A stretch of 64,000 bases of DNA from a virus. Lineage: Duplodnaviria > Caudoviricetes. A model generated the notes under the pieces. That model ran no database searches. It saw nothing but the letters and a program-made list of their open reading frames with translations, and was not told where the DNA came from. Of this stretch, positions 18,761-63,911 are shown one piece after another. The DNA is taken from IMG/VR virus record IMGVR_UViG_3300012953_000012, positions 128,001 through 192,000 of that record. One strand, written 5' to 3'. Each line of letters starts with the position of its first letter. Positions within the stretch are counted from its first letter, which is position 1. Both the position numbers and the translations under genes were made by a program.

Positions 18761-19261
18761 ATGGCCCGCAAACTGATGGCTTCTGACCGGAAGTCCCTGA
18801 TCCGTCTGGCGTCCTCACTCCCCGTAGGTAGTGAGGATCGGAGAACCATCCTCTCCGCGCTCAAGAAAGCCCGGACCTTCAACCCGTACCGCACGGGTCA
18901 CAAGTACGGCATCGACTTGAAGACCGTGGACAACAAGACCGTGAAGCGGTACGGCTCTGATGGTAATGCCACTTCGGGACTCAGCGGGCTGTTTTACGCC
19001 ACCGGAACCGTCACTGACTCCAGCCGCCCCGGAGAGCACCCCTTCATGGCGGTGTTCCGCATCGACCAATCACCACGGTCGGGGACAATGATCTTTGATG
19101 TGGAGCGGGTGTATGGCAGAAGTGCCGAGGCCGCGATGAACGCCGAGATCGCCTCGTATGTCTTTTTTCAGAACTCCAGGGCTGCTTCCAAGTTGGTGGA
19201 CATGCTGGGCCGCATCCAGTACGTTCCCGCACCCGGAACCGAGCGTGACTTCATGGATTGA
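18761..19261 (+). CDS. Hypothetical protein with N-terminal LIRLAxxLPxGS motif
   Basis: AAGGAGG RBS; CGGTAG-N5-CTAT at 18716-18730; ASDRKSLIRLASSLPVGSEDRRTILSALKKA. Confidence 0.8.
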   Translation: MARKLMASDRKSLIRLASSLPVGSEDRRTILSALKKARTFNPYRTGHKYGIDLKTVDNKTVKRYGSDGNATSGLSGLFYATGTVTDSSRPGEHPFMAVFRIDQSPRSGTMIFDVERVYGRSAEAAMNAEIASYVFFQNSRAASKLVDMLGRIQYVPAPGTERDFMD

Positions 19262-19361
19262 GGCCGTACTTGAGCAGGCGGTAGATCTTGAGGACGAGGT
19301 AACCGTAGACGGCGGTGCAGATGAACACGCCCGCAGCCATGCCGAGAATGAAGTGGGTCAC
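19251..19361 (-). CDS. Small single-TM peptide, 36 aa
   Basis: MTHFILGMAAGVFICTAVYGYLVLKIYRLLKYGLNP; GTGA overlap with the upstream ORF stop. Confidence 0.4.
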   Translation of the reverse strand: MTHFILGMAAGVFICTAVYGYLVLKIYRLLKYGLNP

Positions 19362-19597
19362 GGATCACCCTGCTTCATCGAGGGGGCTTGCCCATCCTCC
19401 AAAGCAGGAACAGGCAGACGCCGAGGACGAAGGTGATCTGGTACACCAGCGGGAGCAGCATCGGACGCGCTCTCCTTGCGAAGGCGTTCGACCTCAGCGA
19501 GCAGCCTCTTGAGATCCTGCTGCGCGGTCAGGATGTGCCACTTGTAGAAACTGTCCGCCATGCGGCTTCGGATGGCTTCCAGTTCGTCGTCGGTCAT
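19358..19597 (-). CDS. Hypothetical phage protein
   Basis: MTDDELEAIRSR...DLKRLLAEVERLR, a pattern common in small phage ORFs. Confidence 0.5.
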   Translation of the reverse strand: MTDDELEAIRSRMADSFYKWHILTAQQDLKRLLAEVERLRKESASDAAPAGVPDHLRPRRLPVPALEDGQAPSMKQGDP

Positions 19598-19829
19598 TGG
19601 TCTCTCTCGCCAAAAGCGCACGGGCCTTGTGGTACGCCTCCTCGGAGCAGGAGGCGCGGACGTGAGCATGGTACGCATCCGCATGATCTTCCGTGGCGTA
19701 CCACGGAGTCAATGGGTCTCCGTTGTCGGGGTTGGCGTCAACGGGGCGAGGGGGGACAAGGCGTCCCTCCTTGCGTGGCAGCAACTTGCCGCCGGATCGG
19801 ATGAAGTAGTACCAGCGCATGACCCTATG

Positions 19830-20138
19830 CTACCCGGCGTCGTCCATGATGGAGGCGTACTCCTCGGGGGTCAGGGTGACCTCCGCACCGGATTCGTCCA
19901 GGGCCTCGACGACCCAGTGGTTGGAGACTGTCCAGGCCAGTGACCCCATGTCCACGCCGTCGTGCGTCAGGGTCTTTTCCTCCGGGGGTGGTCCCAGGAT
20001 CACCCGTCCGTTGCACTCGGCCCAGGGGAACTTCTCGCCTCCCTCGGCCAGGTACGCTGTGATGGTCTGATCTTCACGTCGGATGTTGATCTGCAAGTCC
20101 GCCGGAAGTCCGGTCGGTGTGGTGATTGCTCCGCTCAT
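19830..20138 (-). CDS. Hypothetical protein
   Basis: AGGAG RBS, ATGA overlap with the upstream gene; starts MSGAITT. Confidence 0.6.
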   Translation of the reverse strand: MSGAITTPTGLPADLQINIRREDQTITAYLAEGGEKFPWAECNGRVILGPPPEEKTLTHDGVDMGSLAWTVSNHWVVEALDESGAEVTLTPEEYASIMDDAG

Positions 20139-21448
20139 GCTGACTCCTTTGAAGTCTCGGCTGGGGTTCCCAGCACATAGGTGTGGCTGTCGGGGACCGA
20201 GCCTCGGCTTCCCTTCTTGTAGGGCTTCACCCATCGCCGTTTCAGAGCGAGTTGTTCGGTGATCGTTTGCTTTTCGGTTCGGTGATGGGCCTCAGCCCGG
20301 CGCAGAGCCGCGACAATAGGCACTAAGGTAGTGATCTCAGGGTCGTCTTCGGAGAGGCTTGCCAGACGCTTGCGGGCTTTGTTGGCCTCTTCCTGGGCCT
20401 CGTCGTGTGCTTGCGTGGCTTCCCGGATGCGGTGGGCGATGGTGTCTCGTCGAGGCCACCAGTGGCCTCGGACCCAATGCTCACGTTGGGAGGTCCCCGT
20501 ACCAGTGCTGGTGGAGGGTTCGTTGCCTCGGATGCGGACGGAACGCCCAACCCACGAAACGATGTCGGTGGGCAGCGTGGTCAACTGCTTCCGCAACTTA
20601 CGCCCCCGACTCTTGTTTGGATTCTTCATGCGGCCCAGAGCGGTCGTGATCTCCTTGCGGCGGAGGTTGGCCTCGACCACAGCCTCGTCCAGAGTGACCT
20701 CCGCGTCCTGGCAGTCCATATAGAGCAGAGCGTTGAAGAGCACGCGCATCACATGGAGGACGCCCGCGATGGCCGTCCCTCCGTCGTTCCTGGGCATCTG
20801 GGTGGACAGTCCGAGGCTGCGTCCAAAATCAGTCATCTCAGTCAGCGAGGCATCGCGCTCGGGATCATTCAGCATGGCAAGGAGGTAGGTCTCCAGGTCC
20901 GTATTCCTCATCTCCGCGAGATCGAAGGTGAACCACATGGACGCATCGTCGCCGGGGCCGTGGGAGCGTTCATTCTCCATGCCCCAGATATAGACGTTGA
21001 TCATCCCTTCGGGGCAGGTGACCTCACCTTCCACGTCCTGGATGCACTCGCCTGGGGGGACGTAGCGCACGAACACGCCTCCGACCTTGTGCCAGAGGGT
21101 CTTTTCGCCACCCCAGATCTGGGCCTCGCAGTCCGGCAACGCCATGTAGAGACAGCGGTAGGGCAACTTGAGTTCGTTGAACCCAATGTCCTTCAACGAG
21201 GTGCGGGCCAATGCGTCCTGCATCTCGTTGGGGACCACAAAGGTCTGACGGCCTTGTGTGCGGTACTCCGCAAGGAACAGGGTGAGGGTGTAGAGGGCAC
21301 GGTGGAACCCCACGCCGGGCATATCGAAAAGAGGCATCACCGACTGTTGGTCAGTGCCATCTACGAGGGCCTGGACGATCTGCTCGTGGAAGGGGTCACG
21401 GGGAACCTCTCGGGGGAGCATCCGAATCTGGTCAAACACGTTGATCAT
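20135..21448 (-). CDS. Hypothetical protein, 437 aa
   Basis: AGGA RBS; long ORF; HWVRGHW and WVKPYKKG motifs. Confidence 0.7.
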   Translation of the reverse strand: MINVFDQIRMLPREVPRDPFHEQIVQALVDGTDQQSVMPLFDMPGVGFHRALYTLTLFLAEYRTQGRQTFVVPNEMQDALARTSLKDIGFNELKLPYRCLYMALPDCEAQIWGGEKTLWHKVGGVFVRYVPPGECIQDVEGEVTCPEGMINVYIWGMENERSHGPGDDASMWFTFDLAEMRNTDLETYLLAMLNDPERDASLTEMTDFGRSLGLSTQMPRNDGGTAIAGVLHVMRVLFNALLYMDCQDAEVTLDEAVVEANLRRKEITTALGRMKNPNKSRGRKLRKQLTTLPTDIVSWVGRSVRIRGNEPSTSTGTGTSQREHWVRGHWWPRRDTIAHRIREATQAHDEAQEEANKARKRLASLSEDDPEITTLVPIVAALRRAEAHHRTEKQTITEQLALKRRWVKPYKKGSRGSVPDSHTYVLGTPAETSKESA

Positions 21449-21529
21449 GGTCAGTCCTACTTGATGGGGGGCGAGATCACCCCCCTACAGACAAGACGCC
21501 AGCCGAGAGCCTTCGCGGACAGACTCGGA

Positions 21530-23623: not shown

Positions 23624-23664
23624 GAGGGTTCTCCTGTGTGCCCCGGAAGTGGGGCATTGTGGGA

Positions 23665-25157: not shown

Positions 25158-25165
25158 CTCTACTC

Positions 25166-28126: not shown

Positions 28127-28134
28127 CGTGCCCC

Positions 28135-28959
28135 CTACAGTCCGAACAGGTCGTCGAGAGAAATGGTCTCGGGCTCGGCTTCGCGTGCCTCGGTGATCTC
28201 AGTGAGGTCGGAAGACACTTCGGCAGCGTTCCATCCAGCATCACGGGTGTTCCAGTACCGGACCCGGCCCTCGGCGATGGTCAGGTACTCCTTCTCCCGT
28301 TCGATGCCGATGAAGTCGTGCCCTGTCTGGACACAGGCGATGCCCGTAGTCCCGCTGCCCATGAACGGGTCCACCACAGGACCTACGTCCTTCGGCACAT
28401 CGTGGAGCAGCCGTGCCATGACGGCGTAGGGCTTCACGGTGGGGTGGACGTTGCGGCGCTTCTTCACCCGGTTCAGGCCGATGTCCTGACCTCCAGGTGC
28501 CTCGACATCCTCGCCTTCCTCGGTCGATGCGATGGCCCCCTGTGCGCCCCCGGACATGCCGAAGACCTTGAGGGGTAGGTGGTCCAGTCCGGCCTCACGT
28601 TCCTTGCGGGCGGCTTTGGCGACGTAGTGCATCTGGTCGGTCGTGCTGTCGGCCACCATGATGCAGTCGCGGACCTCAAAGCCAGTGTCCTCAGCGAAGC
28701 AGGCTCCGGTGTGTCCCGTGGGTTCAGCGGGGTCGTTGGCGAGCATCAGGTGTCCGCCCGGCTTCAAAGCCCGATGGGCCTCGGTGATCTCGTCGAGGGA
28801 GTCCAGAGAAGACTCCAGCACGATGCCGTGAACGCTCTCGTCCTCGTGCTGGGACCAGTCGTAGCCTTTGGTGGCGTAGACGAACACACCCTCGACCCCC
28901 TGGGGGTCACCGGGCGTGATCATGTCACGCAGGTAGTCAATCAGTTCGGGGTTCATCAC
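28135..28959 (-). CDS. DNA amino-methyltransferase C-terminal SAM-binding module with a degenerate N-half
   Basis: GFEVRD, YVAKAARKER, HPTVKP, VDPFMGSGTTG, IGIERE; no DPPY. Confidence 0.85.
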   Translation of the reverse strand: MMNPELIDYLRDMITPGDPQGVEGVFVYATKGYDWSQHEDESVHGIVLESSLDSLDEITEAHRALKPGGHLMLANDPAEPTGHTGACFAEDTGFEVRDCIMVADSTTDQMHYVAKAARKEREAGLDHLPLKVFGMSGGAQGAIASTEEGEDVEAPGGQDIGLNRVKKRRNVHPTVKPYAVMARLLHDVPKDVGPVVDPFMGSGTTGIACVQTGHDFIGIEREKEYLTIAEGRVRYWNTRDAGWNAAEVSSDLTEITEAREAEPETISLDDLFGL

Positions 28960-29157
28960 GGGCAGGTCCTCGGGTCACGGAGTGGGCAATAAGCACGACG
29001 GAGAGTGCCCACACGCAGGCCAATGTACCCACAACCTCCGCGACCCTACGGGTGCGTCGGAAGCGTCGGGGGCGCTTGGTTTTCATGGTCATAGAAGGGA
29101 GTACCCGTTGGTCTGTCTATGGTGACCCCCCATCGTAGACGACGAAGGAACACCCCG

Positions 29158-30609
29158 ATGCCCCGCTACCCAGCACCACAGGTCCAGTACAAGAAGGACG
29201 AACGAGCACGAGCGAAGCACATCGCGGCGGCTCGACGCGACTTCCGAGCCCTGTTGAAGGCGGTGGCACCGGACGCGGCGAAGATCAAGGCGCTCCACAA
29301 GCGAGATCAAAACAAGCAGAAGCGTGCGTTGGTCAAGAGCCTCAAGGGGCGGGGCGACGTGCGTGCATTTCTCGACAAGTACATGGGCACCGAGTCGGCG
29401 AGTCCGAAGGCGTACTCGTGGCGAAACACGGGGCAGTATCTGGTCCGGGACGCGGCGCTTGGGATCAAGAGCCTCCGGGATGTCCTGCCTGCACTGGACA
29501 AGGTGACGAGCAACGGCTTCCAGGCATTGACCGTCGAGGAGTTTCAAGCACCCCTGCGGTCTACGATCCCAGCCCTGCTGCGGGAGTACCTGCCCCAGAC
29601 GGTCGAGGTCAACGTAGACGAGAACGGGACCATCCAGCGGGTCACGGACAGGTTCAACAACGAGTACAAGACCCTGGCAGTCAAGATCGCCCACCAGAAG
29701 GCGCTCCTGAAGAAGTACAACGCCATCGCCAAGCGGGTGAAGCGGGACCTCAAGTCCTCGGACGAGATCACCCGGCTCTCGGCGCTGATCACATCGATCC
29801 TCATGGAGACCGGCATCCGACCCGGCAAGCGAGGCAACGGCGTGGTCAAGACCATCGGCGACAAGGAAGAGTTCATCGAAACCTTCGGAGCCGTGACCCT
29901 GGGGCCTGGGCACGTCAACTTCGTCCGGGACAACTTCGTGGAGTTGAGTTTCCTGGGCAAGATGACCGGCCAGAACACGGCCACGCTGTCCGACCGGGTG
30001 ATCATCAAGGCGCTCCAGGACTATGTGAACAACGCCCTCAAGTCGGGGAGCAAGTACGTCTTCGTGGCCGACGATGGCTACGAGTACACATACAACGACC
30101 TGTACAAGTACTTCCAGAAGCACTTCAAGGGGATTGACCCCACGGACTGGCGCAAACTCAAAGCCTCCGAGACCGTGTTCGATGCCATCCAGGAAGAACA
30201 GGAAGCCCTGTACAGCAGGATTCTGGCCTTCGCAGACAGCGAGGGTGATGATCTCATGGACCGGGTGACCGAAGAGATCGCAGCGACGTTGGACCGAGCC
30301 ATCGCCAAAGCCCAGGTCGCCCTGTCTCACGACAAGGCCACGACGACGAAGAAGCAGTACATCAACCCAGAGGTACTGCTTCGGTTCCTGAGCACCGCGA
30401 CGATGGGAGGCGCGACGTTCCGCGATGCCATCCTCGCAGGGAAGCCGACGTTGGCGTTTGACCCGCAACGGTTCATCGAGGTCGCCAGCGCAGCAGCCGT
30501 AGGCAAGAGAGCCAGCCGCCGTCTGCTCCTCGCCGGGGGTGCGGCCATGACCTTGGAAGAGATGCTGGACGTGCTGGCGGACTCACTGATGATTGAAGGG
30601 GAGAGGTAG
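29158..30609 (+). CDS. Type IB DNA topoisomerase (poxvirus/bacterial TopIB-like)
   Basis: Catalytic pentad recognisable: ETGIRPG (R), FLGK (K), TDWRK (R), ALSH (H), KQYINP (Y); ETFGAVTL; start may be 29119. Confidence 0.85.
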   Translation: MPRYPAPQVQYKKDERARAKHIAAARRDFRALLKAVAPDAAKIKALHKRDQNKQKRALVKSLKGRGDVRAFLDKYMGTESASPKAYSWRNTGQYLVRDAALGIKSLRDVLPALDKVTSNGFQALTVEEFQAPLRSTIPALLREYLPQTVEVNVDENGTIQRVTDRFNNEYKTLAVKIAHQKALLKKYNAIAKRVKRDLKSSDEITRLSALITSILMETGIRPGKRGNGVVKTIGDKEEFIETFGAVTLGPGHVNFVRDNFVELSFLGKMTGQNTATLSDRVIIKALQDYVNNALKSGSKYVFVADDGYEYTYNDLYKYFQKHFKGIDPTDWRKLKASETVFDAIQEEQEALYSRILAFADSEGDDLMDRVTEEIAATLDRAIAKAQVALSHDKATTTKKQYINPEVLLRFLSTATMGGATFRDAILAGKPTLAFDPQRFIEVASAAAVGKRASRRLLLAGGAAMTLEEMLDVLADSLMIEGER

Positions 30610-37721: not shown

Positions 37722-38927
37722 CTACAGGTCCTCGTCAGCGAACACGCCACCAGTGACGTGAGCGTCGATCAGGGACTTGGCGATCAGCCGGTTGTCGGGG
37801 TCGAGCCGGTCAAGCCAGGCCCGGAAGCCCTTCTTGAGCAGACCCTTCGGCGGGGTGCCCTTCCCGAACCACAGGAGATCATCACACTCGGCAAGGATCT
37901 CGCAGAGTCCCCGGTGAGTGAGGTCAGCCTCCAGGTCCACCGTGGACTCGCCACGGATCGCGTTGCGGATCGCCACGGTAGCAGCCCCCAACTCATCGAA
38001 GACCAGGGGAGCCTTCGCAGCGAGGTCAGCAAACTTGCCTCGCAGGATGGCACCCTCGTCCTTCCAGTCGAGGTATTCGGCCTCCACGAAGCGGCCCATG
38101 CGGTCAAGCAGGGACGCATCCATGACCCGAGAGGACATGCGACCGTCCACGTCACCGGTCCCGCAGGAGTTCGCCGTGAAGGCGAAGCGGGTGCCGGGGA
38201 ACAGGGTGTGAACCTGACCCGTGGGGCCGACGAGCCGCTTGCTGGTGGTGTCCAGCATCAGCCGGAACTCTTCCAACTGCTCAGGCGTGCCACGGTCCAC
38301 GTCGCTGAAACAGATCAACGCGGGGTGGCGGCTGCCGTCTGCGGCCTGGATGCCGTGGATCAGCGCGTCCCAGAGGATGCCGTAGGACCAGGAGGTCCCG
38401 TTGGCACCGATCTCGCGGCTGTAAAACCACCGCTTCACGTCGGTGCCCGACGTGAACGTGTAGATCAGGCTCGGAGTGCGCGTGTCGGCGCAGAAGGCCG
38501 AGATCGCGGCGTCCTTACCGGTGCCCGAGGGACCCCAGTAAAAGACAGGGTGGCCACGACGCAGCGCCAGGACGACCCGGCGGGTGCGCTCCAGCGCCTT
38601 CCCGCAGGAGGGCCACTGGTAGCCTTCGGGCTTCGGAAGGCACTGGCCCTCCGCGATGGCCACGTTGACAGGGGCCTTGACGCCCATCATGTCGTGACTG
38701 AGGGTGGCGAGAGCCGGGGCCGGGGATCGGCGCTGACCCTTGCGCTTGTCCTTCACACCCTGGATCAGGGCGTGGCTGACAGTGGCAGCACCGGGGTGAG
38801 CGGAGAGGTAGTCGGCCACCGAGAGGCCGTGGGCCTCACGAAGGTGGTCGAGGAGGGAGTGTGACTTGTGGCCACAGCCAGGGACCTGGCAGACGACGCG
38901 GTCGTCAACGAGTTTCAAAGCAGTCAT
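37722..38927 (-). CDS. MoxR/CbbQ/CobS-like AAA+ ATPase with N-terminal C2H2 zinc finger
   Basis: Walker A GPSGTGKD, Walker B variant ICFSDVDR, FTANSCG, DASLLDRM; CQVPGC..HLREAH. Confidence 0.85.
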   Translation of the reverse strand: MTALKLVDDRVVCQVPGCGHKSHSLLDHLREAHGLSVADYLSAHPGAATVSHALIQGVKDKRKGQRRSPAPALATLSHDMMGVKAPVNVAIAEGQCLPKPEGYQWPSCGKALERTRRVVLALRRGHPVFYWGPSGTGKDAAISAFCADTRTPSLIYTFTSGTDVKRWFYSREIGANGTSWSYGILWDALIHGIQAADGSRHPALICFSDVDRGTPEQLEEFRLMLDTTSKRLVGPTGQVHTLFPGTRFAFTANSCGTGDVDGRMSSRVMDASLLDRMGRFVEAEYLDWKDEGAILRGKFADLAAKAPLVFDELGAATVAIRNAIRGESTVDLEADLTHRGLCEILAECDDLLWFGKGTPPKGLLKKGFRAWLDRLDPDNRLIAKSLIDAHVTGGVFADEDL

Positions 38928-39734: not shown

Positions 39735-40853
39735 ATGCCTACGAAGCAAGCCGCCCCACGGGGCACGACGACCCTCAGTGGTCGCAAGTGGATCGGAGCC
39801 GCCCAGGCTTCGGTCGATTCAATCCTGGGGGATGCGTCCCCCAAAGTCTCCAGCCGTGGAGGCTCGTTCTTCAACGTCAACCGCTGGACCGCCCGGATCC
39901 TGTTCGGTCGGCTGACCGAGAGCATCAAGTACGGCAACGAGATGGACGAGACCACCGTCCGCAACGGTCTCGACCTGGCCAACGGCACCAAGGTGCCCAA
40001 GCGCGAGATCGTGATCGCTGCGGTTCCTGACCGCATCCCGCCCTGGCTGGCACGGTCCTCCGTTGGAGGCCGCTACCACGAGGCGTGGCATGATCTCTAC
40101 TCGTGTACGCGGGACCTGACCTTCGACGAGGTCAACGGGCCGCTGATGGCTCGCTGGGATCTGCTCGACGACTGGGGTCCTTTCGTTGGCGCTGTCCTCA
40201 CCTGGGGCAACGTGATCGAGGACATCCGCATCGAGCGTCACGGCTGCCGGGAGTTTCCCGGCTCCCAGGACAAGATGGAAGACCTCCAGGACTTGATCCT
40301 GGTCATGGAGTCCGAGGGCCGGACGGCTGCGGAGCACCGTGGTCTGCCTACCAACGACGACATGGCTGTGGTCATGGGCGCGTTCCGTGATCTCGGTCTG
40401 GGCTACCAGACTGAGAAGCAGGAGGCCGCGCTCGCTGGCTACCAGAAGCGGTCGCCCGCTGGCTGGCGGCTCGTCACTGAGGGACCGTTGAAGCCTCTCC
40501 TGGACCGTGCCATCACCATGGGCCGGGACGATGACCTGGGTCACTGGTGGCTCGCCATGGAGGTCGTGGCTGTGCTGGCATCCCTCGGGAAGCAGACTCA
40601 GCAGCAGCCTCCACCCCCTGGCGGCGAAGGCGACGAAAGCCAGCCCCCGCCTCCCGGACCTCCGAGTGATTGTGACGACTCGGATGGTGAGAGCGGCAAG
40701 GGCAAGCCTCCCCGGTTCCCCCTGTTCAAGGTGGGTGATCGTGCGAAGGCGAAGCGTGGAGCCTACGCGGGCAAGATCGTCGAGGTGACCTTCGCTGGTC
40801 CTCCCGACGAGGAAGGCCGCCAGAGCCTCAAGTTTGCCGTCGTCGAAGATTGA
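39735..40853 (+). CDS. vWA-associated putative zinc metallopeptidase (CobT N-terminal-like)
   Basis: YHEAWH (HExxH) plus NVIEDIRIE third-ligand motif. Confidence 0.7.
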   Translation: MPTKQAAPRGTTTLSGRKWIGAAQASVDSILGDASPKVSSRGGSFFNVNRWTARILFGRLTESIKYGNEMDETTVRNGLDLANGTKVPKREIVIAAVPDRIPPWLARSSVGGRYHEAWHDLYSCTRDLTFDEVNGPLMARWDLLDDWGPFVGAVLTWGNVIEDIRIERHGCREFPGSQDKMEDLQDLILVMESEGRTAAEHRGLPTNDDMAVVMGAFRDLGLGYQTEKQEAALAGYQKRSPAGWRLVTEGPLKPLLDRAITMGRDDDLGHWWLAMEVVAVLASLGKQTQQQPPPPGGEGDESQPPPPGPPSDCDDSDGESGKGKPPRFPLFKVGDRAKAKRGAYAGKIVEVTFAGPPDEEGRQSLKFAVVED

Positions 40854-40872
40854 GACTTTTCGGGCCGGTGGC

Positions 40873-40900
40873 CGTTAAAACGGTCGCCGGTTTCCGTAAG
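40873..40900 (+). promoter_or_regulatory. Bipartite CGTTAA-N16-CGTAAG element
   Basis: Exact consensus and spacing. Confidence 0.7.
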
Positions 40901-40957
40901 TATGTGAACCCCTTCCCCCTACCCCCAGACGCCCATCGAGGGCGCACAGGAGATCCC

Positions 40958-42604
40958 ATGACTACTTCCATTTTGACCAGCCTGATGCGGCTGGGTGCCG
41001 AGATCTTCGGCAGCAACGAAGACCTCACCATGCTTCCCAAGGACGACCAGTCCGGCGGCGGCGATGGTGAGTCTGATGACGACGACTCGGACCAGGACGG
41101 CGACGATGCCGATGAGTCCGGTGGCGACCAGGACGACAGCGATGCTGGCGACCAGGACGGTGACCAGGACGGTGACCAGGACGACCAGTCCGGCGACGAT
41201 GCCGATGGCGAGTCCGGCGAGTCTGGCGATGACCAGGACGACACCGATGGTGACGGCTCTGGTGAGTCCGGCGATGACACCGATGGTGACGAAGGCCAGG
41301 ACGACGACGGCGACGACGGCGACGAGTCCAACGGTTCCGATGACGGTTCCGAGGGCGACGAGTCCGGCGACCAGCCCGGTGACGAGTCCGGTGACTCTGG
41401 CGAGGGCGACGGCTCCGACAAGACCGACGACAGCGACAGCGGCGAGCAGACCGACGACGTTGATCCCCAGTCTGACAAGACCGCTGGCGGCTTTGATCCT
41501 GGCGAGGACTTCGCTGACGCCATGGTCGATGGCCTCAAGGCCCCCCAGGATCACATCAAGGACGCGGCTGACGCGCTGGCCGAAGCCACGGACAAGTGCC
41601 GCGACGAAGACGATGTTCACCCTGGTGAGCAGGTCTGGCGTCCCTACAACCCTGAGGCGGACGTCATCGTCAAGCCGAAGGGCGACCGAGAGTCGGCTGA
41701 GACCCTGCGGAAGGAGGCCAAGTTGCTGACCGCTGCCCTCCGCACACAGTTTCGGCGTCGGTTCCTGGCTGCGAAGAACCCCCGTGAACAGCACGGTGTT
41801 CGGCGCGGCAAGGACCTCTCCGAGCGTCGGCTCGTGGAGTCGTTCGTCGAGATCAAGTCCGGCGTGCGCCCCAGCCGCCCCGACTTCAAGGTCGAGTCCC
41901 AGAGGGACGTATCCCTGGCCCTCGGCGTCGTGATCGACCAGTCCGGCTCCATGCACGGTCGCGAGCAGCACGCTGCTGCGGTGGCTGCCCTGGCACTGGC
42001 TGAGTCCTTCGACTCCCTGAACTCCCCTGTGATGGTCTGCGGACCTCGCAACAGTGGGCGGGACGTTCGACGGGCGGACACCGGCTACTACACGGACATC
42101 GACAACGACGACAGCCACACCGGCAGCGTCGATGTGATGCGAGGTCCGAGGTGTCACCGCTACGTCGCCACGGCCATCGACCTGTTCATGGACTGGGACG
42201 AGTCCTTCAAGCAGGTCAAGCACCGCTTCAGCAACGTCCGGGCTACGGGCTCCACGCCCCTGTCTGACGGCATCCAGTTCGCCATGCAGGAGTTGTCCAA
42301 CCGCCCTGAGCGTCACCGGATCATCGTGGTCCTGACGGACGGGGAGCCGGACAACTCCGCTGTGGTGACCCGCCAGATCCGCCTGGCTCGTGAGGCCGGG
42401 ATCACCGTGATCGGTGTCGGCATCAGCGGGGCCGAGTACGCGGTCCCCCGCCTGTTCGTTGACCACCACATCGTCGTCAACGACCTCACGGAGTTGCCGA
42501 AGGCGATGATGGCTGTCGTCGGTGCCATCGTGTTCCCCCGGAGTGCCAAGAAGGCGGTCCTGGACGGGCGCATCGGCACCCGGCGGCAACGTCGGCGGGC
42601 GTAG
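40958..42604 (+). CDS. vWA-domain protein with long acidic linker (CobT/NorD-like C-terminal half)
   Basis: MIDAS DQSGSM, STP, VLTDGEP; ~140-aa D/G/S/E tract. Confidence 0.85.
   Translation: MTTSILTSLMRLGAEIFGSNEDLTMLPKDDQSGGGDGESDDDDSDQDGDDADESGGDQDDSDAGDQDGDQDGDQDDQSGDDADGESGESGDDQDDTDGDGSGESGDDTDGDEGQDDDGDDGDESNGSDDGSEGDESGDQPGDESGDSGEGDGSDKTDDSDSGEQTDDVDPQSDKTAGGFDPGEDFADAMVDGLKAPQDHIKDAADALAEATDKCRDEDDVHPGEQVWRPYNPEADVIVKPKGDRESAETLRKEAKLLTAALRTQFRRRFLAAKNPREQHGVRRGKDLSERRLVESFVEIKSGVRPSRPDFKVESQRDVSLALGVVIDQSGSMHGREQHAAAVAALALAESFDSLNSPVMVCGPRNSGRDVRRADTGYYTDIDNDDSHTGSVDVMRGPRCHRYVATAIDLFMDWDESFKQVKHRFSNVRATGSTPLSDGIQFAMQELSNRPERHRIIVVLTDGEPDNSAVVTRQIRLAREAGITVIGVGISGAEYAVPRLFVDHHIVVNDLTELPKAMMAVVGAIVFPRSAKKAVLDGRIGTRRQRRRA
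41050..41470 (+). repeat. Low-complexity coding repeats (GACCAGGACGGT-type) encoding the Asp/Gly linker
   Basis: Repeated DQDG/DESGD units. Confidence 0.8.
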
Positions 42605-47983: not shown

Positions 47984-48037
47984 GGGGCGGTAGTGCGACT
48001 ATAGGATCAGAAGGTCAAGACTTCTGGAGCGACCCCG

Positions 48038-48634
48038 ATGCCTCGTACCCTGACTGCCGCCGACCGTAGTGCCCTGATTCGCCTTGCTTCGACCCTGGAG
48101 AAGGGTTCGCCCGAACGCAAGGCCATCCTCGCCGGACTGGGGAAGATGGCGTATGGCTGGAGCAGGTCTGAGAAGGAACTCGGTCGTAAGGCGATGGCGG
48201 AACTCGGACTCACCCAGGGCCAGATGTATGCCCTCCTGGACAGCATGGGTGCTATGTCCGCCCACAATAAGAGCCTTCGTGACGGTGATGGCGAGAAGCC
48301 CATGAAGGGAAAGCGTGATTGGATCGCCATGTCCATGACAGACGGGTTGGTCCGCCCTCTCGGCAGGAAGACTCTGGGCCGCTTCTACGACATCGTGTAC
48401 GGCGACCGGCGGCGTGCCGGACTGGAGAAGATGGCAAGGATGCCTTCTATGGTGCTCAACGATCCCAAAGCCTACTTGCGGTGGGCGCGGAAGACCTGGG
48501 AATACAACGTCAACAACCCCCGCCTGAAGTTCGATGCTGCCGTCGAAAAGACGCGCAAGAAGAACCGGCTTCCCGATACTCCCGAAGGGCGTGCCGAGGC
48601 GGCATACCACGAGATCACGCTGCTCCAGGACTGA
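48038..48634 (+). CDS. Hypothetical protein with N-terminal LIRLAxxLxxGS motif
   Basis: AADRSALIRLASTLEKGSPERKAILAGLGKMA; CGGTAG-N5-CTAT at 47988-48002. Confidence 0.8.
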   Translation: MPRTLTAADRSALIRLASTLEKGSPERKAILAGLGKMAYGWSRSEKELGRKAMAELGLTQGQMYALLDSMGAMSAHNKSLRDGDGEKPMKGKRDWIAMSMTDGLVRPLGRKTLGRFYDIVYGDRRRAGLEKMARMPSMVLNDPKAYLRWARKTWEYNVNNPRLKFDAAVEKTRKKNRLPDTPEGRAEAAYHEITLLQD

Positions 48635-48646: not shown

Positions 48647-49543
48647 CTACACGAACGAGCGGGGGCTCAGGACTCCACGCCCGACGTAGGGTCCGAAGGC
48701 TGACCTGACCCCACGACCGAACCGGGGCTGCGCCAGACCACGCATGTAGTGGACCGTCCGGGACTTCGCCTCGGTGAGTTTGTCCCACTGGTCCTCAGCG
48801 TTTTGCTTCATGCCTTCGTACTTGCCGGACTTCTCGATGGAGAGGCTGATCCCGCCGATGCTGTAGTCGAACTCGTTGGCGATCCAGTTGTAGACGAGCG
48901 CCTGAGCCGCGTTCACGAGTGCCCCCCACAGCAACGCTGCCTTCCAGGAAGGTTTCTGCTGGCACAGCATCTCGATGTTCTTGATCTCCTCGGTCGAGGG
49001 TGGGTGCATGTTCCACTTCCAGAGGGCGATCTCCAGGTACTCGGCAAACTCTTCGTCGGTCCAGATGTAGCCGAACACCTGGTTGTAGCAGCCCACCGTG
49101 CCTTCGCCTTCGGGAGGCATGAAGCGGTAGTTGCGGTCGGGATTGTTGTCCCTCGTCAGGAAGCGCATCTTGCGGATCAGGTCCGTCAGGCAGTCCGAGT
49201 AGGGGTTGGCCTCGGTTTCGACGGCACTGGACACGACGCCGAACTCCTGGACGGCCCCTTCCTCGGCGCTCGTTGCTGTCTCCCGGAAGCGCCAACGGAT
49301 GCGGTAGTCCCCCGGAGCCGCACTGGAGGGCACCTGGAGGCTCGCGTAGTACTCACCCACCGTGGGGTTCACCGGAGTCCTGGTCGCGGACCCAATCAGG
49401 ACCTCGGCGGTCGTGGTGGGGTCCACATAGTAGACGGCGTAGGAGATGCTGAAGGCGTTGGTGGGGTTGCCGTCCGCGTTGGACAGGTAGATGTCCAGGT
49501 CGCCGCGAGCGAGGGTCTGACCCTGAGTGAATACGACAGCCAT
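48647..49543 (-). CDS. Putative virion neck/head-tail adaptor-like protein with N-terminal Ig-like domain
   Basis: DYSIGGISLSIEKS..Y pattern; late-type element at 49575-49589; function inferred. Confidence 0.5.
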   Translation of the reverse strand: MAVVFTQGQTLARGDLDIYLSNADGNPTNAFSISYAVYYVDPTTTAEVLIGSATRTPVNPTVGEYYASLQVPSSAAPGDYRIRWRFRETATSAEEGAVQEFGVVSSAVETEANPYSDCLTDLIRKMRFLTRDNNPDRNYRFMPPEGEGTVGCYNQVFGYIWTDEEFAEYLEIALWKWNMHPPSTEEIKNIEMLCQQKPSWKAALLWGALVNAAQALVYNWIANEFDYSIGGISLSIEKSGKYEGMKQNAEDQWDKLTEAKSRTVHYMRGLAQPRFGRGVRSAFGPYVGRGVLSPRSFV

Positions 49544-49583
49544 GTGCTACCTCCTTGCCTACGGGTGCGATCCCATAGCCGCA

Positions 49584-49685
49584 CTACCGGGTGAGGCTCC
49601 ATCTCCAGAGATCGAACGCCAGCAGCGTGCCGATGACGAGAGCCAGCAGCGACCAGATGACCCACGTTGGAACCTTGTCGTTCAC
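49584..49685 (-). CDS. 33-aa single-TM peptide
   Basis: MNDKVPTWVIWSLLALVIGTLLAFDLWRWSLTR; stop lies inside the late-type element. Confidence 0.4.
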   Translation of the reverse strand: MNDKVPTWVIWSLLALVIGTLLAFDLWRWSLTR

Positions 49686-54029: not shown

Positions 54030-56096
54030 CTACCGCGCAGACTGCTGAACCGTGTCCTCTGCTGGGGTCAGGGTTTCCCAGTCGATCTCACAGGAACCAC
54101 CGACACAGGCCAGGGTCTGTGCGCCGTTGCCCATGTCCTCGGTTTCGTACCGAGAGAGCAGCGCGTAGTCGAGAACAGGGAAGTCCAGGAGCCGGGTGCG
54201 GTACTCGGACTCGGTGATCTCTTCGTAGGGGGCCAACTCGTACTTGCCGCCGTCGTAGGGCAGGAAGGAAAGCCCCGTGACCTCGTCGAAGTGCTCGTAG
54301 AGCCAGTCACCAACCTGACCCCACTCGTCTTCGCGGACGTAGACCGTGGCGCTCTGGTTGTGGCCGCGCTCCGAGCACCAGGTCCGCATGATGTGGAGGT
54401 AGCGGCCCAACTGCTCCAGGGCGGTCTCGTCGTTCCGGGTCATGCAGCCTTCGGGGGCCTTGACTGGAAACTCGACAACCCAGGTCGGGCAGTCAGCATC
54501 GGGGCCATTCTTGTACTTCACGTCCTTGAAGACAGGAGCACCGGAGTCCCGGACCAGGTGGAACAAGGGGTCGTTGGCACTCACCCGGACGCGCCGGATG
54601 TAGAACTCTGCGTACCGGGTGTGGAAGCCGCTCGCGCAGTCCACCGCCTGGGAGGAGTTGCCGCTGGGCTTGCCACAGGTCACGGACGCAGGCATCTCGA
54701 TGCCCAGGTGTGCAGCCGCTTCGGCGGCAGTCTCCAGGGCGACCTGGTTGAAGTAGGACATCGCCTCGGCATCGTTGGAGAGCGCCGGGTTGTCACAGTG
54801 GCCGGTGATGTCCACCCCGAGCAGGCGGTCTTCGTTGCAGTGCTGAGTCCAGGCAGGACGCAGGTAGGGGAAGTCGGTGAACGACGCCTGGAGGGCACCG
54901 ATCCAGGTGGCGGTGCGAACCTTCGCAGCGAAGGACTCGCGGGTGTCTGTCTCCCGCATGACGGCAGCCGAGAGGTTGCAGAACTGCCCGCCGCCGCCCT
55001 TGCCTGTCCAGGGGCACTCGGCTCTGGAGAAGCGAAGCAGGATCTCACCGCAGGGGTTGGACCGCATCTCGCCGTTGCGCTCTTCACGACGGCTGGAGGG
55101 GATCATGTAGAAGCCGCGTTCGCCGGAACCGCTGTTCCGAAGGGCGTCCCACTCGCGGTCGAAGATGTCACGGTCTGGCTTGGCGTCCCAGAACGCCGAG
55201 ATATTCGCCATGTAGCGACACTCGGGGAACGACCCCTTGCGCCAATCCTTTGCGTGTCGCATGAGTTCGTCGTCAGGGTCAGAGAAGCAGATCAACGCTG
55301 CGCGGCGCACACCACCAGCCTTGACGATCTCACCGATCATGCAGGCGATGTCACTGACCTCGATGGTCCGCAACTGGCGGCCTGAGGCACCGTCGATGAT
55401 CTCTTGGCAGAACTCCAGGAGGAGACGGAGAGGCTTCGGCCCGGAAGCACGGCCACCCTTCGTCTGGCAGCGGGCACCTTCGGGGCGGATCTGCGAGTAG
55501 TCAAACTCGACGGTGTGTCCCTTCCACATGTGGGTCAACCCGTTGAACACCGCATCGGCCCAGCCGACTGTGCTGTCCGGGATGGTGTACTGGATCGCGT
55601 CACCAGAACGAGGGGCGACCTCTGGGAGGTTGCCGACGAACTTGCGCTCGACCGAGTAGCCGACACCCGTGCCCATCATCAGGATGTACAGCATCTCCCC
55701 AAACGCCTTGAGGTTGTCGAGGGGCACGAAGGAGCAGTTGTAGATCATCGTGTTGTCACGCGCTGCCGCAGGGCCAGCGGACCACAGAGCACGCATCGAC
55801 GGAAGGACTCCCATCGAGAGCATCCCCTCCCGGATGTCCCCCAAAACCGCAGAAGGAACGGAACGCTCACCACCAACGAAGTCGCAGTAGCGGTCCACCG
55901 CCTCCTCGTAGGTCTCGCGGCGGCCCTCTTCTTCGCGCCAGCGTAGGTACGAGCGGGTCACAACAAACTGAGACAGGGCGTTGGGGTAGCCGAAAACCGG
56001 CTTGCGGGTGGGAACGAGGTCAGGGCTGCTACTACACGACTCATGCCTGGTCGGGGTGCTGGATTGTGCGTCTGACAGGGGCATGAGTTCGATCAT
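54030..56096 (-). CDS. nrdJ: Class II (B12-dependent) ribonucleotide reductase
   Basis: PSMRALW, YNCSF, GTGVGYSV, GGRASGP, GGVRRAALI, NPCGEI, CNLS, KPSGNSSQ, C-terminal CxxxxC; no nrdB partner. Confidence 0.9.
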   Translation of the reverse strand: MIELMPLSDAQSSTPTRHESCSSSPDLVPTRKPVFGYPNALSQFVVTRSYLRWREEEGRRETYEEAVDRYCDFVGGERSVPSAVLGDIREGMLSMGVLPSMRALWSAGPAAARDNTMIYNCSFVPLDNLKAFGEMLYILMMGTGVGYSVERKFVGNLPEVAPRSGDAIQYTIPDSTVGWADAVFNGLTHMWKGHTVEFDYSQIRPEGARCQTKGGRASGPKPLRLLLEFCQEIIDGASGRQLRTIEVSDIACMIGEIVKAGGVRRAALICFSDPDDELMRHAKDWRKGSFPECRYMANISAFWDAKPDRDIFDREWDALRNSGSGERGFYMIPSSRREERNGEMRSNPCGEILLRFSRAECPWTGKGGGGQFCNLSAAVMRETDTRESFAAKVRTATWIGALQASFTDFPYLRPAWTQHCNEDRLLGVDITGHCDNPALSNDAEAMSYFNQVALETAAEAAAHLGIEMPASVTCGKPSGNSSQAVDCASGFHTRYAEFYIRRVRVSANDPLFHLVRDSGAPVFKDVKYKNGPDADCPTWVVEFPVKAPEGCMTRNDETALEQLGRYLHIMRTWCSERGHNQSATVYVREDEWGQVGDWLYEHFDEVTGLSFLPYDGGKYELAPYEEITESEYRTRLLDFPVLDYALLSRYETEDMGNGAQTLACVGGSCEIDWETLTPAEDTVQQSAR

Positions 56097-56199
56097 CGTG
56101 GTGTCCTCGGAGGCGTAGGGTTCGGGTTTCATAAAGCGTCGGGCAGCCATTAGAGCCTCGACTGTGAAGCCCTCTCTGAACCCGCCCCTATACGGCGGG

Positions 56200-58399: not shown

Positions 58400-58411
58400 G
58401 CTCGCAACCCC

Positions 58412-58612: not shown

Positions 58613-58660
58613 CTTCCTCCATGTGGAGACATACCCACATGACCCGAGAGGTGACCCCCC

Positions 58661-60075: not shown

Positions 60076-61365
60076 CTACCGGGCTACGAAGGTGTCACCC
60101 CAGCCTTTGCGGACGAGGCCCTGAATGTCGAGGTAGGCCAGGCACCGGTCGAGTCGTGGCTGGTCCATCCGCAGCGCCTCCTTGATTTCCTTCTTGGTGG
60201 ACCACGGCTCCATGCGGAGCAGGGCCAGAGTGTTTTGGGCATCTTCACGAGTCTGGATGCCTTCGCGCAACGCCGCCCGGACCTTGCTCCGGTTGGTGAG
60301 GGCACGGGTCACCGAGCACTCGTCCATGTCGGCAATCTCCTCGGCACTCGCTCCTGCGATCATGGCGTCGTACACAGCAGTGTACCGCTCGACTGCGCCC
60401 CGGAACGCGGAGGCAACGATCTCCCGACCGACTCGGACCATCTCCTCTCGGTCCCGGTGAGTTGCGACCTCGTCCTCAGGGGTCATGCTGGGGTCCACCA
60501 GGACATGCTCCACAACCAGGTCCCCTTCGTCGGGCTTCATTCGGATGACCTCGATGTCCCCTGCCACCAGGCTCTCAGGGGCGACATAGTCCTCCTGACC
60601 GAGTTCAATGCGTTGGTTGATCTCATGCTGGGTGCGAGCGCCGCGCTGACGGGCAAGAGCGTCCTGAGCGGACTTGTAGATGGAAGAGGTGCGCTTGCGC
60701 TCCAATGCCCGGCACAACCACGAGAACGGGACCGCGCCCTTCTCCTTGATGACGGCATCGAACGTGCCCTTCTGTCCCCAGGTTGCCAACCACAGGCCAG
60801 CGTCTGAACGGAGGTCATCGAAGTCAGCATGGACATCGCGCTTCGCCAACATCGCGGCAAGTCGTTTGATGAGGCCGTGCTCCGCGATCTGAACCGCCAG
60901 CCACTCTTGGGTCAGGGTGGTGGAGGCAGCGGGAGCCTTCACAGGAGCCGCAGGAGCCTCGACAGGGGCTTCCTCGACCACAGGCTCCGGTGCAGCCTCG
61001 ACAACGGGCTCGACAGGCTGTGGGGTCTCGACGGGGGTTGAGTCGGTGTTGCTCTCCGGGAGCACGTCGAGGACGATCTCGCGGTCTCCGTCACGGAGGG
61101 TGGCGAGCAGGGTCTCGGGCTGACCTCGGAGGGCAGCGAGTAGAGCGGATGCAAAGCGGGTCTGAGCCCCAGCGCCCTTGAAGCCATTTTGGAGCACGAG
61201 GTCACGGCGCACGATGCTGCGCTTGCGGCCCTGCTCTTCGGCGGTGGCGGTGATCCAGACGCTGATCTCTCGCTCGACCGAGGCGTCGTCCTCGGGAGTG
61301 GCGGTGAAGCCGCTGATCAGGTTGGTGAGGAGGGCGAGACGGCGTGGGGTGGTCTTGATAGACAT
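60076..61365 (-). CDS. Putative sigma-70/ECF-like factor with extra N-terminal domain and C-terminal winged helix
   Basis: Region-2-like DFDDLRSDA.LWL...FD..PFSW; region-4-like GASAEEIADMDECS..A...R.K..AALR; terminal wHTH ..LAYLDIQGLV. Confidence 0.55.
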   Translation of the reverse strand: MSIKTTPRRLALLTNLISGFTATPEDDASVEREISVWITATAEEQGRKRSIVRRDLVLQNGFKGAGAQTRFASALLAALRGQPETLLATLRDGDREIVLDVLPESNTDSTPVETPQPVEPVVEAAPEPVVEEAPVEAPAAPVKAPAASTTLTQEWLAVQIAEHGLIKRLAAMLAKRDVHADFDDLRSDAGLWLATWGQKGTFDAVIKEKGAVPFSWLCRALERKRTSSIYKSAQDALARQRGARTQHEINQRIELGQEDYVAPESLVAGDIEVIRMKPDEGDLVVEHVLVDPSMTPEDEVATHRDREEMVRVGREIVASAFRGAVERYTAVYDAMIAGASAEEIADMDECSVTRALTNRSKVRAALREGIQTREDAQNTLALLRMEPWSTKKEIKEALRMDQPRLDRCLAYLDIQGLVRKGWGDTFVAR

Positions 61366-61555
61366 GGCGTTCCTGGGTTTGCCAGCAGGGCTGGTCATGC
61401 GATGGTTTTTTCGATCAGGTCAGGACAGGCGACAGTGCTACAAGGAGCGGGTCTTTGGTCGTGACCCTTCGGTTGTAGCATGGGAGGAGCGGCGGGTCAA
61501 CCCGGTTTGGCCACTTTTGTCCCACTTTGCTCCACGTCCCCCGATTAGCGTTGCT

Positions 61556-61604
61556 CGGTAGAGTGGCTATGATCACGGACCAGTGATCTCGGTAGTCCCT
61601 CTAT
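61556..61604 (+). promoter_or_regulatory. Tandem CGGTAG-N5-CTAT elements (putative late promoters)
   Basis: Two exact copies at 61556-61570 and 61590-61604. Confidence 0.7.
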
Positions 61605-61640
61605 GGGACGCCGGGGTGTACGACCTACGGAGACTCCCCC

Positions 61641-63911
61641 ATGTTTCAGCCAACTGACCGCGCCCCCCTGTTGCGCCTTGCGTCGAGCCTCCCTGTAGGC
61701 TCTTCGGAGCGTAGAACCATCCTTGCCACCTTGAAGAAGGAGGCCGGGATCATGGACGACACGCTGGCGCGGGCGGACCTGCTTTCAGGTGCTCTCAAGA
61801 AGAGCAAGACCGCTGACCGTGGGCCTGTCCTGGAGGTCATGCAGGGCGGCATCGGAGGATTCTTCGACAAGTGGAACACATGGGTGAAGGAAAAGGCTCC
61901 CGAGTACGGAGCCAAAGACCTCGCAGAACTCCGTGAGTCTCCTGATCTCAACGACGAGGACCGTGATGCTCTGGAGGGCTTCGACAAGCGGCTCAAGACC
62001 TACGGTCCCGTCGCATCCCAACTCCTTGATCTGCTGGGTCAGATCGGAGAGGCCGAGAAAGACGCCTACGATGTCCTGTCCAACCGCAAGGACTACAAGT
62101 TGCGCGAAGCCGTCATGGCAGGCGCGGCCAAAGGCATCCACGGCATGGTTTCTACGATGGACTCGGGTCGTCGCCAGGTCACGGACATCGGACGGGGTGG
62201 GATCACCACTCCTGGGTCACACGGCGTAGACGCGGAAGACCTCGCCCAGGTCATGCTGGGCGGCGGCATGTTCATGCCAGGCATGATCTTCGACATGAAC
62301 ATCAAGGACAAGACCGACATTGGTCAGGGCTACAAGGTCAAAGGCGCGTTCAAGGAGCGCAAGAAGGTCTGGTCACCTGCGGGAACGAGCGTCTACACCA
62401 TCTCTGGTGCCGCACGCGGACCCTACATCAAGCCTGCCGCCAACTACGCCCGCACTGTGGCTATGAACGCCGCTGTGGACTGGAAGCGCAGCGTCCACGT
62501 CGAGTTGGAGTACATCCTCACCCCTGCCGACGAGCAGGACGGTGCGGACACGGGTGCCATCAACATGGGCGGCAAGGTCAGCCTGGAGACTCTCATGGGA
62601 GCCGAAGAGATCGCGGGCGTCCCTGTCAGCAGGCAGATGATCCTGGCTCAGTACTACATCAGGAAGATCGAGTCGAAGTTGGACAAGATGCTCAAGGAGG
62701 GAGTCGCCAAGGCTACCTGGCAGGCAGTCATGGCCCTGATCAAGGACCGGAAGAACCCCTGGAAGAAGGGTGGGGCTGGAGACTTCTCCATCGCTGTCCC
62801 CGTCGTCGCAAAGTTCCTGGAGAGCACCCGCGAAGGCCAGGAGATCATGGAAGCGAACGGCATGGAGAAGGCGGATCCGCGCACCATGCAGGCTCGCTGG
62901 AAGGACGCTGTGAAGAGCCTGAGGAAGGCGCTGTCTCAGTTGTCCGACGACGATCTGCTCTCCTCCCTCCACCTCACCCTGGAAGGGTTGGTGGATGATG
63001 TCCCCGCGTACATCCGCCAAATCAAGGACGACAAGGACCTCTACCAGACATACCTCTCGGACCTGCGAAAGACCGCCTCGGAGCAGAAGACCCTCACTGC
63101 ATCTGACCGTTCGGCACTGATTCGCCTGGCCGCATCCCTGCCTGTGGGATCACCGGAACGCCGTGCGATCCTTGCTGGCTGCGAGAAGTTGCCCGCTGGC
63201 CCGATGCGGGACAACTGCGAGAAGTCCAAGAAGGACGGTGTGCAGCCTGGCAAGGGCAAGTCGAAGGCGAAGTCCGACGACAAGAAGAAGGACGACGGCA
63301 AGATGCCCGCCGAGTTGCTGGAGAAGTTCAAGGCGAAGAAGGCTGGCAAGGATATGTCTCCCGCCGAGATCAAGAAGAAGATCGAGGAGATGGAACACTT
63401 CCTCGACATGATGCAGAACTACGACCCCTTCCTCCGAGGCCCCATCCACCATCAGTTCCAAGCCACCTCCAAGCAAGTGGCGGACTTGAAGAAGGCTCTC
63501 GACAAGGCCCTCCGTGGAAAGAAGGCTGCTGGTAGCCCTGACCCCAAGGGTCGCAACAGGAAGGAAGCCGCTGGCAACACGACGACCCTGACCTTCGATG
63601 TGAAGTACCTCATGCCCCTCATGTCCGTGCTCCAGAAGAACGGCTACAAGATCCGGCAGTCGGGTCGCGGGATGGAAGTGGTTGGCCATGACCGGTTCGA
63701 CAAGGCTGCGGGCAAGGTGCCCGACGCTCTCAAGAAGCACCAGTTCAAGCCCGGTGAGGGCGCGGGCGAGGATGCTGACGGTGACGGCAAGACCAACGAG
63801 CCGAAGCCCGACTTCCTCAAGAAGAAGGCCGCGCTGATTCGCCTGGCTGCCACACTCCCTGTGGGATCACACGAGCGCAAGACCATCCTTCGCATGGCCG
63901 CTGGAGCATGA
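61641..63911 (+). CDS. 756-aa protein with three LIRLAxxLPVGS motif copies; putative head-internal polyprotein
   Basis: Motif at the N-terminus, internally and at the C-terminus; Lys-rich spacers with repeated K-x-A. Confidence 0.75.
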   Translation: MFQPTDRAPLLRLASSLPVGSSERRTILATLKKEAGIMDDTLARADLLSGALKKSKTADRGPVLEVMQGGIGGFFDKWNTWVKEKAPEYGAKDLAELRESPDLNDEDRDALEGFDKRLKTYGPVASQLLDLLGQIGEAEKDAYDVLSNRKDYKLREAVMAGAAKGIHGMVSTMDSGRRQVTDIGRGGITTPGSHGVDAEDLAQVMLGGGMFMPGMIFDMNIKDKTDIGQGYKVKGAFKERKKVWSPAGTSVYTISGAARGPYIKPAANYARTVAMNAAVDWKRSVHVELEYILTPADEQDGADTGAINMGGKVSLETLMGAEEIAGVPVSRQMILAQYYIRKIESKLDKMLKEGVAKATWQAVMALIKDRKNPWKKGGAGDFSIAVPVVAKFLESTREGQEIMEANGMEKADPRTMQARWKDAVKSLRKALSQLSDDDLLSSLHLTLEGLVDDVPAYIRQIKDDKDLYQTYLSDLRKTASEQKTLTASDRSALIRLAASLPVGSPERRAILAGCEKLPAGPMRDNCEKSKKDGVQPGKGKSKAKSDDKKKDDGKMPAELLEKFKAKKAGKDMSPAEIKKKIEEMEHFLDMMQNYDPFLRGPIHHQFQATSKQVADLKKALDKALRGKKAAGSPDPKGRNRKEAAGNTTTLTFDVKYLMPLMSVLQKNGYKIRQSGRGMEVVGHDRFDKAAGKVPDALKKHQFKPGEGAGEDADGDGKTNEPKPDFLKKKAALIRLAATLPVGSHERKTILRMAAGA

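Follow-up and report, generated by a model that had tools for sequence, protein, structure and literature searches.

A portable tag, predicted to fold as a helical hairpin, on unrelated proteins of aquatic megaphages: a possible virion address

The capsid-targeting sequence (CTS) of phage T4 comprises about 10 to 20 residues, is strictly N-terminal, ends in a hydrophobic-x-Glu motif and is cut by the gp21 protease. One T4 protein, Alt, is an ADP-ribosyltransferase that is packaged and injected. In the scaffolding protein of phage P22, a basic C-terminal helix-turn-helix of about 30 residues is a sufficient address to the capsid interior, and the cargo-loading peptides of encapsulins, cellular compartments with an HK97-fold shell, are extended stretches of about 10 residues that are mostly C-terminal. 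The T4 CTS has been reviewed (PMC3012670), and in the MuF-type polyvalent and polymorphic-toxin proteins of phages a head-associated module is joined to variable effectors, some of them ADP-ribosyltransferases, which accompany the DNA on delivery (PMC7824862). Here we describe a peptide tag carried by three unrelated proteins in a 64,000-nucleotide stretch of viral DNA (the window), which spans bases 128,001-192,000 of a 205,564-bp IMG/VR virus record with a G+C content of 62%. The record, for which CheckV estimated a completeness of 46%, covers part of a megaphage genome of roughly 450 kb and, as judged from the capsid protein, belongs to a relative of phage G.

An earlier note on the window had reported five copies of the tag on three open reading frames (ORFs), and all five were confirmed, on the + strand. 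Copy 1 (18761..18871), which scored a domain E value of 2.7e-19 with the hidden Markov model (HMM) described below, forms amino acids (aa) 1-37 of carrier 1 (18761..19261; 166 aa). Copy 2 (48038..48151), the nearest of all to the family consensus, forms aa 1-38 of carrier 2 (48038..48634; 198 aa). The cargo of both proteins, that is, the part outside the tag, has no assigned function. Carrier 3 (61641..63911; 756 aa) has three tags: one at its N terminus (copy 3, 61641..61745), one internal, at aa 484-519 (copy 4, 63090..63197), and one that makes up its final 30 residues (copy 5, 63819..63908). When an HMM built from the five copies was run against the whole 205,564-bp genome, translated in six frames, all five were recovered with domain E values of 1e-16 to 1e-19, together with a sixth, divergent N-terminal copy at genome positions 99440-99526; beyond these six, no genome match fell below E 0.05. 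The sequences outside the tags had been described as unrelated, and they were: with the tags masked, the best BLASTP comparison among the four carriers gave an E value of 0.15. The description of the tag as a portable peptide also stood, but the length of about 30 aa did not, the conserved span being about 38 residues with the pattern M-x-R-x-L-T-A-x-D-R...A-G-L-x-K-x-A.

For the same residue, different codons were found in 129 of the 216 codon pairs compared between tag copies (60%), and the differences by codon position (111/73/218) were dominated by third positions. Selection therefore acts on the peptide, and this protein-level selection is strong. A DNA-level origin of the copies, as a recent duplication or a recombination site, was ruled out by the saturation of synonymous sites.

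A profile of the six copies was searched against 1.84 billion cluster representatives, among which 1,543 proteins matched at E<=1e-3; at the stricter limit of E<=1e-10 there were 356. Some 120 matches to the 198-aa carrier covered its first 38 residues only, at 80-90% identity, with full divergence after them. The family consensus was M-[SP]-R-T-L-T-A-[AS]-D-R-S-A-L-I-R-L-A-S-T-L-P-x-G-S-x-E-R-K-A-I-L-A-G-L-x-K-x-A. Masking of the tags left 266 carriers that fell into 129 unrelated groups, with a median cargo of 125 residues and a charge near neutral. Cargo was also seen both with and without the tag: the family of carrier 1 has tagged orthologs (P0002-P0008) and an untagged member (P0010), and in P0009 and P0011 an extra domain stands in front. 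These results bear out the portability on unrelated proteins that had been proposed from the window alone. As for placement, the N-terminal position held, and internal and C-terminal copies proved to be common in the wider family too: in the 135 best profile hits, 110 copies were N-terminal, 80 were internal and 35 were C-terminal. Related genomes are richer in carriers: a 297-kb contig (G001) encodes 17 of them with 23 tags and a 288-kb contig (G002) 11 with 12 tags, against 4 carriers and 6 tags in the record studied here (G000). In the related genomes the carriers frequently lie in tandem arrays.

Outside these phages the tag was virtually missing. A pattern scan of 185,579 prokaryote species genomes yielded only three loci, each on a metagenome-assembled genome (MAG) contig of 15-18 kb, and tblastn of the tag against 50,697 deposited phage records gave no match. 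The tag and the window carriers matched nothing in Pfam, PHROGs or NCBIfam, the tag had no match in the PDB either, and a search of the literature returned no description of such a tag, all in line with the earlier note, which had not recognized it as a described family. We conclude that the tag defines a new, very large family of portable modules, predicted to be helical hairpins and specific to a clade of aquatic megaphages.

As to what the module does, it may be a virion address, most plausibly to the inside of the procapsid, for accessory proteins; we would put this at a little under an even chance. Virion targeting is favoured because a promoter-like motif is shared with virion genes, because one carrier of a variant tag lies in a head operon and because of the kinds of cargo; it is favoured further because lineage-specific variants suggest a co-evolving phage partner, and by analogy with the known address peptides. 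Under such a mechanism, the helix-turn-helix hairpin of about 35 residues would be a self-contained, portable docking module. Many different accessory proteins, expressed late, would be brought by it to a single conserved part of the virion as it assembles. The tagged proteins would then exit the cell with the particle and might enter the next host, and multi-tag proteins such as the 756-aa carrier 3 would serve as multivalent hubs or scaffold-like components.

The helix-turn-helix reading of the tag agreed with the AlphaFold2 model. With an alignment of 131 tag sequences, a hairpin was predicted that consists of a helix at residues 7-19, a five-residue turn at the invariant G23-S24 and a second helix at residues 25-43, with a mean predicted local distance difference test (pLDDT) score of 83. 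Conserved hydrophobic faces are formed by L13, I14, L16, A17, L20, I30, L31 and L34. R10, R15, R27, K28 and K36 are conserved basic residues, and the tag as a whole has a low net charge, about +2 to +3. L16, A17, G23, R27 and L31 are invariant. Foldseek gave no hit for the model in the PDB at E<=0.001, as expected for a unit so small, and no PDB sequence matched the tag profile at better than E 0.04, the hits at that level being chance matches. The core is followed by A-G-L-x-K-x-A, with K in 64% of sequences at +5 and A in 48% at +7, and without a conserved Glu.

With two predicted helices, a turn that contains Gly, its conserved basic residues and a length of close to 35 residues, the tag recalls the SAP and HeH motifs, and a VP2-like DNA-binding protein is found among the cargo. 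The hairpin could accordingly be a nucleic-acid-binding motif of the SAP/HeH/Rho-N type that tethers proteins to phage DNA, perhaps so that they enter the head with it. We consider this very unlikely. No SAP, HeH or Rho_N match was found in the window carriers at E<=1 or in 149 other carriers at E<=0.001, the net charge is low, there is no sequence or fold match in the PDB, and the near absence of the tag from cellular genomes is unlike the distribution of SAP and HeH. The earlier note had said that a match to a known DNA-binding domain widespread outside phage proteins would speak against capsid targeting; such a match was looked for in Pfam, the PDB and the 185,579 prokaryote genomes and was not found.

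The genes of the carriers share an upstream element. Each window carrier is preceded by CGGTAG-N5-CTAT, as the earlier note had observed, and the window contains 7 such sites, compared with 0.00 expected from shuffled sequences. On the + strand, the element lies at 18716..18730, 30 bp upstream of carrier 1, and at 47988..48002, 35 bp upstream of carrier 2, while carrier 3 has two promoter-like motifs in front of it (61556..61570 and 61590..61604). Another, on the - strand (49575..49589), is upstream of an ORF (48647-49543, -) homologous to the 'head-tail connector protein' of Tunturiibacter phage Tunturi_5. The shorter form GGTAG-N5-CTAT occurs at 19 sites in the genome, nearly all of them 25-80 bp upstream of the start of a gene on the same strand; it is present at all four carriers, in front of the homologs of two tail-fibre genes (by the Tunturi_5 annotation; genome 40888 and 52791) and in front of a head-module gene (genome 2064). 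Over three genomes, 14 of the 32 carriers had it within 120 bp upstream, compared with 35 of the 817 genes that are not carriers (odds ratio 17, p 1.5e-10). Carriers without the motif are often in tandem arrays, and may lie inside operons. These features make GGTAG-N5-CTAT a likely phage-specific class of promoter, under which the carriers could be co-regulated with virion genes. This strongly over-represented intergenic motif is kept in G001, with 29 sites, and in G002, with 18, but has only 3 sites in the 485-kb uncultured phage LR745208.1, a more distant relative.

Most of the cargo had no Pfam match. Where domains were recognized, their arrangement relative to the tags varied. P0183 has an ADP-ribosyltransferase domain (aa 150-319) with two tags C-terminal to it, P0203 has pentapeptide repeats with a tag on either side, and P0115 a WGR domain with an N-terminal tag. 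A Fusellovirus-VP2-like domain is flanked by tags in P0189 (aa 5-31 and 166-194), and in a G001 protein such a domain has tags both N-terminal and C-terminal to it (aa 3-38 and 348-385). P0204 combines a DnaJ-type zinc finger with two tags, the best scoring of which is N-terminal (aa 6-34). An ADP-ribosyltransferase on a carrier that would be expressed late is reminiscent of T4 Alt.

Phage LR745208.1 (loci L092-L116) gave no match to the tag profile. However, an all-against-all comparison of N-terminal 50-mers revealed that ten of its proteins, unrelated to one another, begin with MTTLRSKLIRLAHxNPxLRPxLLPLLKEAA (for example, L111:18456-18575, - strand). When aligned to the tag with hhalign, this variant matched over 29 columns (E 5.7e-5, probability 66%), with a turn three residues shorter, and it is probably homologous to the tag. 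The variant was found at 70 IMG/VR loci, including a contig that also has the first type of tag. One variant carrier of LR745208.1, of 134 aa, is encoded in the head operon, between the scaffold gene and the decoration and capsid genes.

A second N-terminal leader, (M)KNLKxILAxEGL, was observed in G002 (loci L077-L091). It comprises about 12-15 residues, is similar to helix 2 of the tag and stands on about eight small unrelated proteins, whose genes are mostly located at 264-271 kb of that contig (e.g., 263906, 267192 [-], 270152, 270400 and 270784).

The tag is 80-90% identical across phages whose other proteins are 30-70% identical, which would fit an invariant target, and it begins at residue 1 in 71% of the N-terminal copies, a position typical of recognition tags. 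It might for that reason bind a conserved host factor or mark proteins for timed handling, as a degron, as an adaptor tag for a chaperone or protease, or as a signal for localization in the host cell. This seems to us quite unlikely. Related phages have distinct variants, and some genomes (G003 and G002) have two types of tag; a co-evolving, phage-encoded partner therefore fits better than a single invariant host target. Besides, degrons are usually short and unstructured, whereas the tag is predicted to be a folded hairpin of 35 residues and is often repeated, and nothing in its sequence resembles an export signal of the hydrophobic or twin-arginine kind.

Multiplicity of the tag bears on another alternative. 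Two to four copies were present in 76 of the 135 best profile hits, at the N terminus, in the middle and at the C terminus, and one protein of 87 aa, P0181, is scarcely more than two tags. Such multivalent layouts look less like those of a cleaved propeptide than like those of a module for docking or cross-linking, and the hydrophobic faces of the predicted hairpin need a partner surface, which could be another hairpin. The hairpin could, then, be a general module for docking or self-association that builds a non-virion intracellular complex or condensate, such as a replication or assembly factory, with the multi-tag proteins as cross-links. A comparison of gene presence and absence, made in search of a receptor, singled out none, which speaks for this explanation. 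It is a serious rival, yet on balance unlikely in our view, given the promoter-like motif common to carriers and to tail-fibre and connector genes, the variant-tag carrier in the head operon, and the resemblance of the ADP-ribosyltransferase and pentapeptide-repeat cargo to host-directed effectors and not to parts of a factory.

Carrier 3 is the multi-tag protein of the window. Its layout of N-terminal, middle and C-terminal tags is maintained in the homologs P0132, P0133, P0135, P0138, P0139 and P0144. In its model (pLDDT 61) the protein is mainly helical, and its Lys-rich linkers are long and disordered; the model gave nothing significant in a Foldseek search of the PDB. An assignment as a sigma factor of the extracytoplasmic function (ECF) kind found no support, since no sigma family matched at E<=1 and the fold search gave none either. 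Between the internal and the C-terminal tag (aa 520-720; window 63200-63800), the homologs retain a C-x11-C pair (AGCEKLPxGPMRDNCEK) and a loop, D-x-D-G-D-G-K-T-N-E, with the look of a calcium-binding site.

Because LR745208.1 has a tag variant of its own, the partner of the tag should be a core gene. One conserved candidate is the major capsid protein, of the HK97/Phage_capsid_4 kind, which is encoded at genome 6958-7833 (G000, locus L048) and has 291 aa. It was 91-100% identical to its counterparts on uncultured contigs of 141-297 kb, 85.6% to that of LR745208.1, 50% to that of Tunturi_5 (309 kb) and 40.6% to the major head protein of Bacillus phage G (498 kb). Among the tag-bearing genomes, it is the sole head protein as conserved as the tag (91-100% identity, compared with 64-70% for the protease and 55-60% for the acidic scaffold-like protein, which is encoded separately at 4560-6074 of G000 and has no tag). 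The protease, encoded at genome 3124-4563 (L048), is 41% identical to the 'head maturation protease' of Tunturi_5 and matched nothing in Pfam. Its C terminus is extended by about 190 aa in all four tag-bearing genomes, at aa 290-479 in G000; the extension is made up of an acidic linker and then a helical domain ending in RDLSxAExRVVVRxGxLL, which is absent in Tunturi_5 and phage G. This extension is a candidate receptor of the tag, or else the protease's own address. The comparison of gene content mentioned above yielded 20 genes specific to G000, G001 and G002, and no single candidate emerged from it.

A more specific form of the virion-address reading combines these elements. The hairpin and the shorter variant would together be a family of address labels used by globally distributed aquatic megaphages related to phage G, and would mark a large, fast-evolving set of capsid-loaded proteins, numbering as many as about 17, or more, in a genome. 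Their receptor would be phage-encoded and co-evolving, possibly the C-terminal domain of the protease or the inner surface of the capsid, and the multi-tag proteins would form an internal hub. We offer this combination tentatively, as something that could be so but is on the doubtful side.

Several observations weigh against a virion address in general or against parts of it. Tunturi_5 and phage G, both cultured and of the same capsid fold family, have neither the tag nor a comparable shared N-terminal peptide; these tagless relatives keep the capsid protein, and its conservation is therefore independent of the tag. All the carriers, for their part, come from uncultured phages. The correlation between the protease extension and the tag amounts to one evolutionary event, and a similarity of the protease tail to helix 1 of the tag was dismissed as too weak (6.3 bits, in one genome, with an hhalign probability of 7.6%). 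It is only by virtue of the shared promoter-like motif that the carriers would be 'late'. The L-x-K-x-A end may be simply the end of the helix, no protease cleavage motif being seen, and a propeptide removed by cleavage would be at odds with copies that are internal, C-terminal or multiple. That the tag has a binding partner, that its carriers are packaged into the head and injected, and that the tag is ever cleaved are things that we only infer.

Even without a function, the module is sharply defined, has more than 1,500 distinct carriers and has no database entry, so that a family definition is already possible. If the virion address proves true, the proteins carried into their hosts by ocean phages of about 450 kb could be listed from sequence alone; the list would include an ADP-ribosyltransferase, DNA-mimic-like repeat proteins and many proteins with no annotated function. 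In the more specific form, sequence would give direct access to the set of proteins that uncultured megaphages package and inject. A virion address would also mean that very large phages not of the T4 lineage have evolved a cargo-loading code of their own from a structured, reusable hairpin, and a folded tag of 35 residues, functional at either terminus, could help to load cargo into phage-derived shells.

Some other features of the genome are worth recording. Tara Oceans samples were the source of the close relatives, one of which had been binned into a Planctomycetaceae MAG. The conservation of the capsid protein is unusual: more than 2,000 clusters (at 90% identity) matched it, the best 120 being 87-99% identical, compared with 30-70% for the other proteins of those same genomes. 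The window opens with a single ORF of 3,824 aa (29-11503, +) that has no Pfam match and has homologs in G001, G002 and LR745208.1 (48%, 38% and 30% identity, respectively). Conserved genes for products of 77, 863 and 266 aa follow, as does an SLT lytic transglycosylase (16418-16999), and the ORF is probably part of a virion or ejection module. A MoxR/CobS-like AAA_5 ATPase lies beside a VWA/CobT-like protein (37722-38927, -; 39735-40853, +; 40850-42604, +); both are kept in G001 and G002 and were not found in LR745208.1. The window also encodes a type IB topoisomerase with a catalytic core of the eukaryotic type (29119-30609, +), a B12-dependent (class II) ribonucleotide reductase (54030-56150, -) and a DNA methylase fragment (28135-28959, -) that matches the N6_N4_Mtase profile in its C-terminal part only.

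With regard to the known systems, the earlier note had likened the tag to the capsid-targeting sequence of T4. Like the CTS of internal proteins IPI-III and of Alt, the tag is a shared peptide on unrelated accessory proteins of a large phage; there is an ADP-ribosyltransferase among the carriers, and the carrier genes are often in tandem and turn over fast. The analogy fails, however, on the specifics, and a T4-type CTS was rejected on length, position, end motif and type of protease alike. The tag is about three times longer, with some 35 residues and a predicted fold, it ends in L-x-K-x-A and not in the hydrophobic-x-Glu motif, and it is often internal or C-terminal and present in several copies. 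The protease of the phage is not of the T4 type, and its head is of the HK97/phage-G type instead of the gp21/gp23 type. MuF proteins resemble the carriers in joining a conserved module to variable domains, including an ADP-ribosyltransferase; unlike the tag, of 35 residues on many small, separate proteins, the MuF module is a large, folded domain of a single giant protein, and no MuF match was found with Pfam in the window carriers or in 149 other carriers. Encapsulin cargo-loading peptides are likewise short, portable, found at either terminus and attached to diverse cargo of an HK97-fold shell, whereas the tag is a predicted folded hairpin in a tailed megaphage. An encapsulin system was ruled out by the homologs of baseplate, tail-fibre and connector proteins encoded in the genome and by the scattering of the carriers over more than 90 kb. 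The coat-binding element of the P22 scaffold differs in being found on one protein, compared with hundreds for the tag. The tag matches no solved structure in sequence or fold, and its phage has a separate, untagged, acidic scaffold-like protein. Nevertheless, the helix-turn-helix of about 30 residues predicted for the tag resembles that element, as well as the C-terminal tails of the herpesvirus scaffold and protease; C-terminal copies of the tag exist, and the 756-aa helical protein with three tags could be scaffold-like.

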